Shown: piece by piece, positions 1,999-56,032 of the stretch
How positions within the stretch are numbered: the stretch's first letter is position 1
How the letters are laid out: every line of letters begins with the position of its first letter
Assembly: GCA_964016885.1 (NCBI GenBank)
Contig: OZ024743.1
Coordinates: forward strand, 194,990,001 to 195,054,000
From: Eledone cirrhosa
Lineage: Eukaryota
Length of the DNA: 64,000 bases
Direction: 5' to 3'
The notes under the pieces: model-generated
Seen by the model: only the letters and a program-made list of their open reading frames with translations
What the model was told of the DNA's origin: nothing
The model's database searches: none
Program-made: the position numbers and the translations under genes

Positions 1999-2550
1999 TA
2001 TAATTGAATATATGAGAGGGATGAACACCGATACAAGTATGCATGTGTTCCAATTGCAAATGACTAAGTTAGCTAGGTTGAAAAAATACCAATTTAAAAA
2101 AATATGGTTTGCTTGTCTCGATTTAAAGTAATAAATCAATAAAAATAACAAACCTATATCGGACAACAGCCATAGATACCCGGACAGATCTAAATCTGTT
2201 TTACAAGAATTATTAAGTGAAAGCCACCATTCCTGTGCTCTTCTGCGTGTATCCATAAATTCGTACCTTTCACTTCAAAGGATCTAAGAAAACTGAACGA
2301 TATGCTGATATAAAAGCACCTAGCGCGTCTCATACTCATGCCGGGTTTATTGAGACTAAAGTTAGCTCTACATAAGGTGCCGAGAATATCATAGATTGAG
2401 ATAGAAACTCAAAATAGACTTTTACAGTTAAATACCTCAAAGAATCTTTCCGAGCCGTGTAATATAATTGAATATATGGGAAGGATGAACACCGATATAA
2501 GTATACATTTGTTCCAATTGCAAATGACCAAGTTAGCTAGGTTGAAAAAC
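1999..2550 (-). mobile_element. Non-coding partial-tandem element (~464 bp unit), PLE/retrozyme-like, with decayed hammerhead
   Basis: 2001-2085 repeats at 2465-2549; related copy at 11640-11870; bounded by (TA)n and (TG)n; minus strand GCACC..GAGACGCGCTA-GGTGC at 2316-2380. Confidence 0.55.
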
Positions 2551-4916
2551 GTTATTCTGTGTGTGTGTGTGTGTGTGTGTGTGTGTGTGTGTGTGTGTGT
2601 GTGTGTGTGTGTGTTTGACTTAATGTATTGTTGTTGAGATATAATAACTATAATTAGAATATTTACTGAAACTTCCGATAGTGATCAGTAAATGAGTCAT
2701 CGTCTAAGTATTGGATATGATATACATATGGATTAACTATTATTTTTATATGTTACAATTCTATTGAAAGAAACACCTAAAAATGTATGAGGATAAGTAT
2801 TGAGATTAGATAGGTTTAATCCTACAACACTCTTTCATATTGCTATTACAACTTCCTTCGGCAACGTTGTGTTAGCTGCGATTAGTATGCTGTCCTCATA
2901 GTAAGTTGCATGCTGCATATCATTCTTTCTAAATTACCTATATTATTAATATAGATAAATCTGAGGTCACTGAAAAGAGATGGCCTCATTTATTGTGATA
3001 ATTGAATATGCATTTATCAGTAATGTGTCCTGTCAATAAGATGCTAGTTATTGTTCTTGTCCAGACCCACGTTTATTATTAAATGTATTCATCACGTAAC
3101 AATCGCATCTTTCCTTGGCAGCTTATATCTAGGATTTTATTATTCAACGTGTTAGAATCCTATAGTAAGACGGTAGGAAATGATTTGCGAGCGATTAAGA
3201 TGCTACGCAGCCCAACCGACTACGTAAAGGCCTTTTCTTTGGTTAAGATAACATTTAGATGTTCCATTTGAAAGGAATATAAGAATATGCATGTTTATGC
3301 ATATGACTTTTGGAATTGCAAAGTCTGTAAATGTATGAAACATAGGTTTAGATTAAACTAGAGTTACTAAAGATGTATATATATATATATATATGTCTGT
3401 ATTTAATTGGAAATGTGCAGAGTAAGTAATATCATGAAAAATACGTATTCCGAAAACAAGCAGAATAAAGCTGAGGAAAATGTAATCGTCTATAATAGTA
3501 GTAAGAAAGAAATATTATAATAATAGCGGCAATGCAACTTTCTCACTGTCAAACGAATGTAAAACGTCCGAAACGTTGCTATCTTTACTATTAAAGGCAA
3601 CAAAACTTATAACACTTTTTATGAACCCTTGCATATGTTTGAATATGTAATTTCGTTTGGCATTTTCATGATAACCGTTGTTAACTAGCACAATCTGCTG
3701 GTTTCCATTGAATCATAACGTTTCTATTCTCTTTTTAATCGCTCAACATTTCATAATTATATTTATTTATCATGTAACACTAAAATTACTGAGAGAAATA
3801 TCCCAGAGACCTTTCTGCATACTAAATAGTAGTCGATTACATGATGTTTTTTACTTCCTAATATTGATTAGGTTCACAGAAAATCTGGTTCACAGAATGA
3901 TTCACAATCCCACTCAAAAGTATTTTACCTCACTTTATCATTGCTTCTCTTGACTAATGCAAGAATTCCTTTTTACTGGGTTTTTTTGCTTAATAAATCT
4001 CAATATCTATATTATGAAAGGAAATATATTCTACTTAATATTTTTCTCCAGAACTGTTGATTGAGAAATATTTGACTATAATTACTTCCACATTAAAGTA
4101 ATGTGAAAATGTAAATTGTTTTCCTAATATATATTTTAAATATGTTGTATACAATCAATAGATTTTTATTACTTAAATTCTTTACCTATTCATTGGAAGA
4201 TAAATTAAGTCATATCTGATGACATTAGCGAAACTCAGAAACCATAATTTTTAATTTCCCATCCAGATGTAATTATAATTTTTCTCATTAATCTTTTCCA
4301 TGAATTCAATTATTTAATACCCCATTCTTTATTTGTAAATTAGTTTCTTCCTCTCCCATCGTCGTCATATATCTCTTATAATTGCTCCACATTCATAATA
4401 TCCTCCTTGTCAATCCATGACAGCTTCAATTATTGCGACTTCTACCACAATCTGAACATATGTGAAATTAATCTCATATAGAAACTTCATGCATATTCAT
4501 GGAAATACCAATCTAGTTTATATCCTCACCTACATCATCTAATCTGGGTGTTCGCCAATATTACAATTTTTTCCGTGATTTATTATTAGCATGTTTTCGG
4601 CAGAGATTTATGTATTTTATAAAATATTTTCTCCTGCACCAATTTCTATTTTTTTATTTTCATCGTGAATTGCTGTAAAAAACAAAATTACATTTGCATG
4701 TTTTGATTTGAATATAGAACAACTGCTTGAGCATTCTACATTAAACGTTTAATTATCCACCATCTAGTACATAGTCTATTATATGTATGCTGATAGTGAG
4801 TGAGATCGAAAACTGTGCTCCTACATAAAAAAACATTCATAGGCAAAATCAAATAAAACTATAGAAAGATAATGTTTCATAGCATCCTTTATTCTGATTT
4901 GAAGAATCCCACTTAT

Positions 4917-5095
4917 ATATAAAATAGGCGGCGAATTAGCTGAGTCATTGGAACACCGGACGGAATATTCTGCAGTATTCATTTTCCTTTGCTTCGTTCT
5001 GATTTCAAATCCTACCAAAGTCAATTTTGATTTTTATCATTTCGAGGACGCTAAAAATGTACTAGTCCAGTCCAGTTTTTGGGGTCGATTAGTAC
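4917..5095 (+). mobile_element. Degenerate SINE copy
   Basis: GGCGGCGAATTAGCTGAGTC head, TTCAAATCC B-box-like motif, decayed body. Confidence 0.65.
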
Positions 5096-5382
5096 TCTAT
5101 ATCTCTTTCTAGCATCCTCTCATTCTCTCTGATCCTAAGGAAGAAATTGACTATGTTCAAGCCTGGAGAGCAATGGGGTTCGGCCAAATTTGAAATGTCC
5201 AAGAAACGCAGCATGTCACCATGTCACCCCTATGATACCACTGGATCAATATATACATACTTATTAAGAACTATGCAGCAATGCATATAAATCTTATACT
5301 TTGGAATGCTGTTTACATATCTGCTGAAATAAATAATGATTAAACCCTATTTTAATGGTATTATTAGTGATGGTATTTGTGG

Positions 5383-5810
5383 AGAAAGCCCATTAAAAGG
5401 TAACAGTGACCCTGACCACCAAGGCAAGTGCCCTCTCCCAGTTTTCCACCTTTAATTTACAGACACATACTCAGAGTAGGCCCATTAACTCGGGCCATTC
5501 TTGCTTCTCTCACCCATCTTTCAACAAAATACTGGGAAGAGAGCACTTCCCTCTCTACTCTGATTTTCCTTTTCAAATGAAATTTGAAAAAGTCAATCAG
5601 GGCATCACCGAAGAGGTAAGTGCTCGTCTACAGCCCTTTGAAACGTGTCCACTATACTATCTCCCCCTTATTGGGGAATTTTTCATTGTTATTTTTTTTA
5701 TTACATCCTCTGTTTTTTTACACGCAGAAATGTCCATTTGTACCGTCCTGTATTGTCCTGTACTGTCCTTAATGTCTACTTTATGTAAACCCTTGTGGTT
5801 AATAAAGAAA
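5383..5810. mobile_element. L1/Tx1-like 3' fragment with 5' inversion
   Basis: Minus 5450-5650 encodes ..ALIDFFKFHLKRKIRVEREVLSSQYFVERW..; plus 5660-5810 is a 3' UTR ending GTGGTTAATAAAGAAA; imperfect flanking duplication 5358-5382/5811-5835; same family at 49038-49735. Confidence 0.6.
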
Positions 5811-54249: not shown

Positions 54250-54345
54250 AGTTCAGAGACCGAACGCACCACCCAGGACTGGTGTCGAACTCACAACTTT
54301 ATGATCGGAAGTCCAGGACACTAACGATGATGACACAATCTTCAG
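54250..54345 (-). mobile_element. Decayed head of a different tRNA-derived SINE
   Basis: Minus strand GTTAGTGTCCTGGACT..GTGAGTTCGACACC B-box-like motif. Confidence 0.5.
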
Positions 54346-54729
54346 GTATAAATGCTTCAACTTGAAAATCTCGTTTGCTCCAAAATGGAATGATTATTGA
54401 GCAGAATCATCAATTACTGTTTAACTGGTTTCACTTATTGGAATCTGATCATGATGGGGCAGCGCCTATATTGATTTTATTTGAACATCGCCTCAACCCC
54501 AAATAATTTTCATGTCTAAAACCTGTAGGTTACGTGGCTTGAAAGGACGCAGCTTAAAGACAATGATTGCTAATTGGTGTAAATAAACACTGCCACGGAC
54601 TTAGATTCCCACGTGTCACACAAACACACAAACTGGAACACACACACACACATACACATACACATACACCCACATACACACCCACACTCACACACACATA
54701 CACACACACACACATATATATATATAAAT

Positions 54730-55645
54730 AAAGTGGTCCTTCATCAGTGATCTTCCAACCATCATCGGTATTTCTTCGCTTTAAAGACCATATACCTCCG
54801 GTTGGTGCGAGCAACGGCTAAAAAAAGTCGGTGGGACACGTAAAAAAGGGAACAGCGAGAGTGTGAACAAACAAAGATGGTGAAGCAACGAAAGGTGAGG
54901 AAGAACGTGTCAAGTCCCAAATTTCCATGAATATACGTTCGGTGAAATCGTGAACGAGATAGAATAAAGACCATCAAAGCTGGTTGGAATGTGAGCAAGG
55001 AAGGAATTCCGTACAGGTCTAACGGGAGGAAGAAGGAATCTAGTCTGTGAATTCGGTGAACATAAGTTCTGTGAAATCGTAGACGAGAGAGAGAAAAAAA
55101 GGGGAAACAGCCTGACCAAGCGTGGGAAAGAAGAGAATTACGCACAGGTCAAACGGGAAGAATAAGGAGGAGGAGAGGTAGTAACAGAGAGAGAGTGGGT
55201 GAAGGGTGAGGAAGAGGCTAACAGAGAGAGTGACTGTTAGAGAGGGTAAAGGTACAGAGAAAGAGGAAGCAGTAAGAACGAAATAGACGGGTCACAGCGG
55301 GGGAAAAAATATGTGTAAATATGAGAATAAACGTGCTGCGAGGTTGCAAATGGGTTACATATGAGTAAAGTGGTCCTTAATCAGTGATTTTCCAACCATC
55401 ATCGGTATTTCTTCGCTTTAAAGACCATATATCTCCGGTTGGTGCGAGCAACGGCTAAAAAAAGTCGTTTGGACACGTAAAAAAAGGGAACAGCGATAAT
55501 GTAAACAAACAAAGATGGTGAAGCAACGAAAAGTGAGGAAGAACGAGTCAAGTCCCAAATTTCCATGAATATAATTTCGGTGAAATCGTGAACGAGAGAG
55601 AATAAAGACCATCAAACCTGGTTGAAATGTCAGCAAGGAAGGAAA
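54730..55645. repeat. Partial-tandem element, ~637 bp period with ~275 bp repeated
   Basis: 54730-55005 recurs at 55367-55643; internal sub-repeats GTGAAATCGT..ACGAGA; (TA)-rich flanks. Confidence 0.8.
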
Positions 55646-55779
55646 TATATATATACATATATACATATATACATATATATCCAGAGGGTGTAACATGAAG
55701 TTACTATAGGTTCACCCGGGTGAGCACTCGATGTTTGGTTTCAGGTTAGTGGCGAGGTCTAGAGCTAGACAGAGTGTAA

Positions 55780-56032
55780 TATATGATACAAGGACGATTT
55801 GTTAAGGCTTCATTACTTTCATTCATTGCTGACGCACGTTTCGCTATTGATAACCTTTTCAGTCATTACTACAGAATTTCTGTCATTACTACAACAGAGG
55901 TCCGACGAGCCTTTGATTCCTGAGTCGCGCCAGATCGATACAGATCGAACGTTGTGCTGATCAATAGCGAAACGTGCGTCGCCGATCAATAAACGCGTAA
56001 TGAAGGCTTATCAAATCGTCCTTGTATTATAT
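55780..56032 (+). mobile_element. Small foldback element with long-stem-II hammerhead-like motif
   Basis: 55781-55851 inverted at 55960-56032; GGT-CCGACGA-GCCTTTGAT..ATCAATAGC-GAAA-CGTGCG-TC-GCC. Confidence 0.65.

Follow-up and report, generated by a model that had tools for sequence, protein, structure and literature searches.

Hammerhead-bearing elements in the window

We analysed a stretch of 64,000 nucleotides (nt) of the Eledone cirrhosa genome (assembly GCA_964016885.1, contig OZ024743.1, positions 194,990,001 to 195,054,000, forward strand), which we refer to in full as the window. It has a G+C content of 36% and many (TA)n tracts, and lies in a genome of 3.0 Gb. We consider it quite probable that the window combines the ends of coding Penelope-like elements (PLEs) with five families of units lacking an open reading frame (ORF), A, B, D, E and G, that were likely copied into (TA)n in trans, and that family G has a predicted self-cleaving hammerhead whose blocks stand in the order S-G-C (cleavage-site block, GAAA block, CUGAUGA block) and is likely a passenger of the PLE group known as Naiads. 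The elements concerned are as follows, where RT is reverse transcriptase and UTR untranslated region.

54719-55644, minus: family G, ORF-less 637-nt unit, 1.45 head-to-tail copies, (TA)n at both ends
54736-54837, minus: family G hammerhead in S-G-C order (U16.1 at 54792, H17 at 54791, G12 at 54774, C3 at 54747), predicted cut 54791/54790, stem II completed by an upstream strand, A-A mismatch at 10.1/11.1
55367-55492, minus: second, decayed copy of the family G motif (G8U)
1998-2549, minus: family B, ORF-less 497-nt unit, 1.18 copies; type-I hammerhead at 2245-2183 with a U4A core and full stem III, G12A in the window copy
11626-11870, minus: B-like fragment, 78% identical, 5'-truncated just past the ribozyme
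15060-16233, plus: family A, ORF-less 490-nt unit; 1.49 copies at 15497-16233 (plus, hammerhead 15956-16026) and an inverted arm at 15478-15060 (minus, decayed hammerhead 15224-15154)
28110-28706, plus: family D, 0.8 of an ORF-less ~760-nt unit; hammerhead at 28405-28520 (plus), its stem II domain 97 nt long and its core mutated in the window copy
49796-50141, minus: family E, 1.10 copies of a 316-nt unit without ORF; U3-A8 hammerhead at 49993-49961
23565-25757, minus: PLE1, 5'-truncated coding Hydra-type PLE with RT and GIY-YIG remnants; hammerhead 23659-23621; inverted 5' arm starting at 25488
25797-26704, minus: PLE2, 3' part of a coding Neptune-like PLE with a CX4CxxC linker; hammerhead 26020-25987 (A14G)
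26943-28042, both strands: unit C, two 3' ends in inverted orientation from a coding Hydra-type PLE whose 3' UTR is long; hammerheads at 27849-27893 (plus) and 27048-27004 (minus)
30942-35630, minus: PLE4, decayed, near full-length Hydra-type PLE; hammerhead 31170-31132 (U4C, U16.1C); 95-nt direct terminal repeat (30942-31036 = 35537-35630)
55678-56027, plus: unit F, from an old coding Hydra-type PLE, made up of a short 3' end and an inverted arm; U4C hammerhead at 55902-55980

An earlier note, made from the letters of the window, had placed type-I hammerheads in coding PLEs and in six mutually unrelated ORF-less units. Ten of the 11 positions it gave hold either a type-I hammerhead or what is left of one in a decayed family copy; there is no hammerhead at 2316, the ribozyme of family B lying instead at 2245-2183 on the minus strand. 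The note had overlooked family G (54719-55644) and the second B-like fragment (11626-11870). Cores are intact at five sites in the window, namely 15956, 27849 and 55902 on the plus strand and 23659 and 49993 on the minus strand, including a U3-A8 variant at 49993 and a U4C variant at 55902. Mutated cores are found at 15224 (G5A), 27048 (C3U) and 28405 (A6G and A9G), where the family majority keeps an intact core, and at 26020 (A14G) and 31170 (U16.1C), for which only related copies elsewhere were seen intact. A search of the window against Rfam matched none of the type-I hammerheads, and our first, strict descriptor missed two clear ones and was loosened. Matches at 4061 and 41665 had no second copy and were treated as chance. 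A piece of another hammerhead family, from a cluster with a long stem III, adjoins the B-like copy (11871-11925, minus).

Hammerheads are also frequent in the rest of the genome, which was sampled, with family counts and densities based on 790-800 kb of unselected DNA. In 590 kb sampled at even spacing, with one minisatellite locus out of 60 set aside, the type-I descriptor gave 40 matches, against 0, 0, 0, 1 and 1 in five shuffles. Type-I matches formed 27 sequence clusters in 790 kb of unselected DNA (Chao1 estimate 55) and 63 in 2.06 Mb, 40 of them with at least two matches. A (TA)4 tract lay within 260 nt downstream of 39 of 45 hammerhead matches, as compared with 26% of random positions. 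The hammerhead diversity to which the note had pointed is real. Two or more further clusters have tandem periods, and a coding or non-coding class could be given to a minority of clusters. Extrapolation from these samples puts the number of hammerheads at the order of 10^5 per genome. The TA microsatellites of this genome house dozens of repeat families with hammerheads, of which some are PLE ends and others short non-coding passengers that PLEs likely copy.

A predicted hammerhead of scrambled block order in family G

Family G forms a partial tandem of 637-nt period at 54719-55644 (minus), with the same insertion pattern as the other ORF-less families and no type-I hammerhead. Scans limited to type I had led us to conclude that the family lacked any ribozyme, a conclusion overturned by the S-G-C blocks in aligned copies. 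In these copies the cleavage-site U-H comes first, followed by a 4-nt linker between stem I and stem II, then by GAAA, with CUGAUGA last, while a strand upstream of the cleavage-site block supplies most of stem II together with a 6-bp helix clamping stems I and II. With a descriptor written for this block arrangement we found 21 matches, against 0, 2 and 0 in shuffles of the same 2 Mb; when the upstream stem II was included, 16 distinct matches were obtained (2 from one minisatellite), against 0, 0 and 0. A profile search gave 39 matches in ~2 Mb, 6 of them in 800 kb of unselected DNA, and some partial or weak.

We aligned 16 of the 21 descriptor matches; of the other five, four were duplicate loci and one contained an insertion. 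Across the alignment 94.8% of cells were paired and 22 of the 35 named pairs had changed on both sides, as compared with 26-47% paired and at most five pairs changed on both sides in controls with slid partners. The pairs changed on both sides include six of seven in stem I, three of five in stem III and five of six in the clamp helix; the 10.1-11.1 pair occurs as four pair types, and the core positions are invariant in the 16 copies except for one U4C. It is well supported by these sequence comparisons that family G encodes a predicted self-cleaving hammerhead of the non-circular order S-G-C. As its stem II differs from that of the published type-SGC ribozymes, we file it as a variant of that type and not as a plain member.

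Several points weigh on the other side. Stem II is not a simple helix between the GAAA and CUGAUGA blocks, since only 10.1-11.1 pairs directly, and its upstream part, though always paired, varies in one of four pairs and in one sequence only. The structure was drawn from the same sequences that scored it, which favours it, and related sequences could beat the shuffle control of this pairing analysis without any structure. Rfam gave no ribozyme match for family G, one exact pattern of the motif found nothing in metagenome and viral contigs, and scans for other hammerhead block orders returned scattered or simple-repeat matches only.

The fold has likely counterparts in Naiads. Naiads are reported to be without detectable hammerheads (Craig et al. 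2021, PMC8557442), and a table in the same paper marks "HHR_core" or "HHR_half_core" for some of them. We compared the 3' regions of 15 of the 54 published Naiad consensus sequences by eye and made out a G-like fold at the 3' end of four from octopus, squid and coral: Naiad_Ovul, the record preceding it (Naiad_Obim by table order), Naiad_Esco and Naiad_Amil. The layout runs from one strand of an outer stem through a hairpin, the stem II strand, the clamp, the S and G blocks, the second clamp strand and the C block to the other strand of the outer stem. In Naiad_Ovul and Naiad_Amil the upstream strand places a G opposite C11.1, giving a canonical pair, and the octopus consensus ends appear by eye to agree with family G both in their entire layout and in how far it lies from the (TA)n junction. 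We therefore consider family G a likely passenger of Naiad elements.

The eye comparison also counts against this assignment, for the fold was not seen in the other 11 of the 15 ends, namely Omin, Adux, Ebur and Tama (marked incomplete), Skow-1, three oysters, one Clytia and two Darwinula records. No autonomous parent or partner of family G was found, and no Naiad peptide motif turned up in the 2 Mb of genome searched, so that a Naiad partner in this genome is one we infer. Together with the atypical stem II, and with the frequency here of Hydra-type ORFs that likewise insert in (TA)n, this would suit a pseudoknotted RNA of another kind that only resembles a hammerhead, or a family driven by a Hydra- or Neptune-type RT with no tie to Naiads. 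Against the former stand three core blocks in exact register and the covariation of stems I and III, against the latter the shared layout and junction distance of the octopus Naiad ends, and we regard either as very improbable. It is in our judgement moderately probable that one branch of Naiads, along with its non-coding passengers, relies on a non-circularly permuted hammerhead that is active and whose stem II takes its missing strand from upstream. By eye, Darwinula Naiad-2 and Naiad-3 (PMC8557442, File S5) have CUGACGA and GAAA in another order near the 3' end, and the oyster and hemichordate Naiads a different conserved 3' motif.

Type-I families, coding PLE ends and a proposed copying route

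For each unit 30 loci were gathered by DNA search, and for A, B, D, E and F 30 extra loci each were taken with a short exact pattern that favours no architecture (genome-wide counts: F 1800, A 591, D 376, E 89 and B 72; reversed controls 0). After removal of 13 duplicates, 107 pattern-chosen loci of A, B, D and E remained (25, 29, 29 and 24, respectively, one E locus lacking a main segment). The units measure 490 (A), 497 (B), 759 (D) and 316 nt (E), and their longest ATG-initiated ORFs 30-87 amino acids (aa). The sequence 5' of the ribozyme is the unit's own downstream end, 5' ends are scattered over the whole unit, 41 of the 107 loci are longer than one unit and 80 terminate on TA. A, B, D and E are thus hammerhead families without an ORF, whose copies are circularly permuted and have their 3' ends fixed on (TA)n.

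Units C and F, by comparison, reach GIY-YIG coding sequence and are accordingly ends of coding elements, not independent ORF-less units as the note had it; for these two, the outcome is one that the note had itself listed as refuting its proposal. Unit C runs upstream into a GIY-YIG ORF, with a PLE ORF 1.15-1.4 kb upstream in 14 of 47 C-type matches, and unit F, mostly truncated directly 5' of the ribozyme, has a longer body up to a GIY-YIG remnant at 2 of 30 pattern loci. One could suppose, in a genome that was sampled and not covered whole, that every unit is such a 5'-truncated end or a solo pseudo-long-terminal-repeat (pseudo-LTR) of a coding PLE and that independent non-coding families do not exist. 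This holds for C and F. In A, B, D and E, however, the sequence upstream is again unit sequence: no pattern-chosen locus (0/107) had a PLE ORF within 400 nt upstream on the same strand or ran into one, and G copies likewise wrap round the unit in the window and at two sampled loci (L128 and L214). We judge the supposition distinctly unlikely. The retrozyme-like guild proposed in the note thus stands for four of its six units, which are ORF-less, circularly permuted, at (TA)n and inserted in the PLE pattern.

The coding elements have the marks of Hydra-type PLEs: the DKT motif (in sampled loci L231 and L181), a CxCX5C linker (in PLE1, PLE4, C and L245) and a (TA)n target, with a C-terminal GIY-YIG domain that gave a weak Pfam match and, in F, survives as an endonuclease remnant only. 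By these sequence marks we class PLE1, PLE4, C and F as Hydra-type PLEs. Named homologues of a Hydra-type RT from this genome include Argonauta hians proteins. Full-length coding elements have the same layout as the passengers, in that the first 95 nt of PLE4 repeat its 3' end and the direct terminal repeats of L245 are separated by 5.2 kb. L245:660-5900 (minus) is a Hydra-type PLE of 5.2 kb that is almost intact, and its open stretch of 715 aa is a candidate protein.

Hammerheads differ between the families. The core of family B is CAGAAGA, with U4A in 30 of 33 copies, and the minimum-energy fold of an intact copy is a three-way junction. In family D the core is complete only if a 97-nt stem II domain is allowed; loss of GAAA by a 4-nt deletion was considered and rejected, the supposed ancestral pattern having 0 matches and the real GAAA lying 97 nt downstream. 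The type-I stems covary between subfamilies, including swaps between C3-G8 and U3-A8, and the circular folds of A, B, D and E exceed those of 20 rough shuffles in stability (z -4.6 to -8.3).

A and B are not unrelated, as the note had described all its units: they have in common a 48-nt stretch at 77% identity (window 15779-15799 in A) that lies in the same orientation in both and includes a small hairpin with a T-run loop. In an E-like relative (74%), four or more 310-nt units follow one another in arrays of the classical retrozyme layout (L022:26-1205; L053:17-1345), and a B-like relative of 558-nt period has a U3-A8 core and a stem III insertion of ~65 nt (L037:480-1300; L205:1546-1699). 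Similar 11-nt A/C-rich motifs lie near a fixed 3' end in A (15575-15590) and in the tail of F (55681-55700) and offer a weak lead to the partner of A. Locus L005, considered as a coding link, proved to be a chance neighbour past a (TA)n tract.

In each of A, B, D, E and G the copies permute one constant unit head to tail; their 5' ends are scattered, whereas their 3' ends fall at one or two fixed sites on (TA)n. In nt past the cut site, these ends lie at ~90 and 202 (A), 185 and 266 (B), 142 and 168 (E) and, in D, at a single site (~190). A, B, E and G, but not D, frequently have inverted arms. Both ends lay at defined sites in 46 of 76 inverted pairs, 42 of which used two different sites. Among 310 segments, the cut site was crossed at least once in 243 and twice in 33, although the choice of loci favours crossing; long arrays were seen only in the E-like 310-nt relative. 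No common motif was made out at the 3' junctions, where the search was swamped by low-complexity matches.

We propose that PLE-type RT and endonuclease proteins likely copy the units in trans into (TA)n. A GIY-YIG nuclease would nick the (TA)n tract, and RT would start inside the RNA at fixed sites past the cut, at 90-270 nt in the type-I families or at ~65 and 115 nt in G, and cross the unit junction; because it runs through that junction, the template would be a ligated circle or an uncleaved multimer. In inverted insertions both nicked strands may be extended, each from another start site. The hammerhead would cut multimeric transcripts to unit length, and two copies would act together as a dimer in those units that have only a short palindromic stem III. 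An Anolis PLE has two internal RT start sites and nicks on both strands in vitro (PMC11167929), and the two fixed 3' ends and the pairing of different sites fit such two-site initiation and two-strand nicking. The one-sided tail described for PLEs (Craig et al. preprint) also matches the pattern here.

Other evidence tells against this account. In vitro, a PLE inserts without any need for hammerhead cleavage (PMC11167929), and of nine Xenopus dimers that were assayed, eight failed to cleave (bioRxiv 10.64898/2026.07.22.740005). Core columns of family B are no better conserved than the rest (14/335 versus 281/6634), and those of A, D and E just about twofold better. No coding parent or partner of A, B, D and E was found, a low-stringency BLAST search of 2 Mb returning only ORF-less relatives, and A, B, D, E and G have no homology to coding PLE ends.

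The units could alternatively be PLE-driven passengers whose hammerheads, that of G included, no longer cleave alone and serve as protein-binding or assisted folds, with an uncleaved linear multimer as template. The Anolis hammerhead cleaved only with its protein (PMC11167929), variant cores have become fixed in families, as with U4A in B, and 5' ends do not pile up at the cut site (17/310 within 15 nt, ~10 expected). Yet the catalytic nucleotides and the U-H site are fixed while the surrounding stems covary, and U4C and U3-A8 cores are functional (PMC3088659, PMC4209133). We consider loss of autonomous cleavage unlikely.

The window also contains other repeats:

56191-59239: long interspersed element (LINE) with AP endonuclease and RT domains, its frame interrupted once by a stop and once by a frameshift
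40141-40956: fragment of Tc1/mariner type that has inverted ends and matches to helix-turn-helix domains
36956-39814 and 42125-43986: 1227-nt tandem duplication and related copies, 3' ends of a non-LTR element with (TATG)n tails, frequent in the genome
1-115, 6235-7724, 35337-35566, 48635-49036 and others: an abundant short interspersed element (SINE) of ~200 nt, with 77 matches in 600 kb

Meaning and comparison with known systems

If the reading of family G is correct, no non-circularly permuted hammerhead would have been described before from a known organism's genome; its topology would be new among hammerheads, cephalopods and a coral would carry it in thousands of copies, and the statement that Naiads lack hammerheads would be overturned. 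As a version with a rearranged stem II in an animal mobile element, it would be a new fold for the ribozyme field to solve, non-circular hammerheads having been described so far from metatranscriptome and metagenome contigs, and would show that a class of ribozymes in genomes escapes Rfam and the usual descriptors. It would take away part of the puzzle of hammerhead-less Naiads and suggest that self-cleaving terminal-repeat RNA is general to PLEs. The type-I passengers, for their part, would bear directly on the still open idea that animal retrozymes are moved by PLE proteins: the trace left in them consists of internal start sites at fixed positions, a change of site on the inverted arm and synthesis across the unit junction. 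They would also serve as defined templates in vitro.

With regard to hammerheads in related genomes, 235 hammerhead-1 matches have been counted in the giant squid (PMC6962438), and the word "ribozyme" was not found in the text searched of the Octopus vulgaris repeat annotation (PMC13282606). The U3-A8 and U4C cores are in print and known to function (PMC4209133; PMC3088659), while one literature search turned up no hammerhead paper with U4A as a natural variant. An abstract-level search, covering few subscription journals, found nothing in print on permuted hammerheads within PLEs.

Hydra-clade PLEs (PMC8557442) are matched by PLE1, PLE4, C and F in GIY-YIG, linker where seen, (TA)n target, the DKT motif of their relatives, and terminal hammerhead, the last likewise present in the PLEs with minimal hammerheads (PMC4209133). 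Hydra-clade elements are published as generally <3 kb (PMC8557442), whereas those here reach 4.7 kb (PLE4, with SINE insertions) and 5.2 kb (L245) because their 3' UTRs measure 1.2-1.5 kb; since <3 kb is a tendency in that source, we kept them as Hydra-type.

Families A, B, D and E are non-autonomous PLE passengers of an already known kind, the families themselves being new. Animal non-LTR retrozymes, already proposed to be non-autonomous PLE derivatives (PMC7229834; bioRxiv 10.64898/2026.07.22.740005), are likewise short, AT-rich, ORF-less type-I units with head-to-tail copies that co-occur with PLEs. Unlike them, A, B, D and E are mostly dispersed insertions of 0.2-1.9 units with fixed 3' ends and inverted arms, have units of up to 760 nt, variant cores and a long stem II or III, and no pseudo-LTR parent of theirs was found. 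Chlamys non-autonomous elements such as MRC1 (PMC8557442) are also ORF-less PLE passengers with pseudo-LTRs and head-to-tail copies.

Family G shares with Naiads (PMC8557442) insertion into (TA)n, partial tandems, inverted arms and a tail at one end, and differs in having no ORF where Naiads are coding. The closest ribozymes are the type-SGC hammerheads named and shown to cleave by Eckert et al. [quoted passage not shown] Like HRIMA-1 and its variants, family G has the S-G-C order, all core nucleotides, a short stem I-II linker and an extra helix on the far sides of stems I and II. The published examples come from metatranscriptome contigs, whereas family G sits in an animal mobile element; and unlike them, it has the strand that completes stem II and the clamp helix 5' of block S, with a hairpin and an outer stem that would make a four-way junction next to A9.

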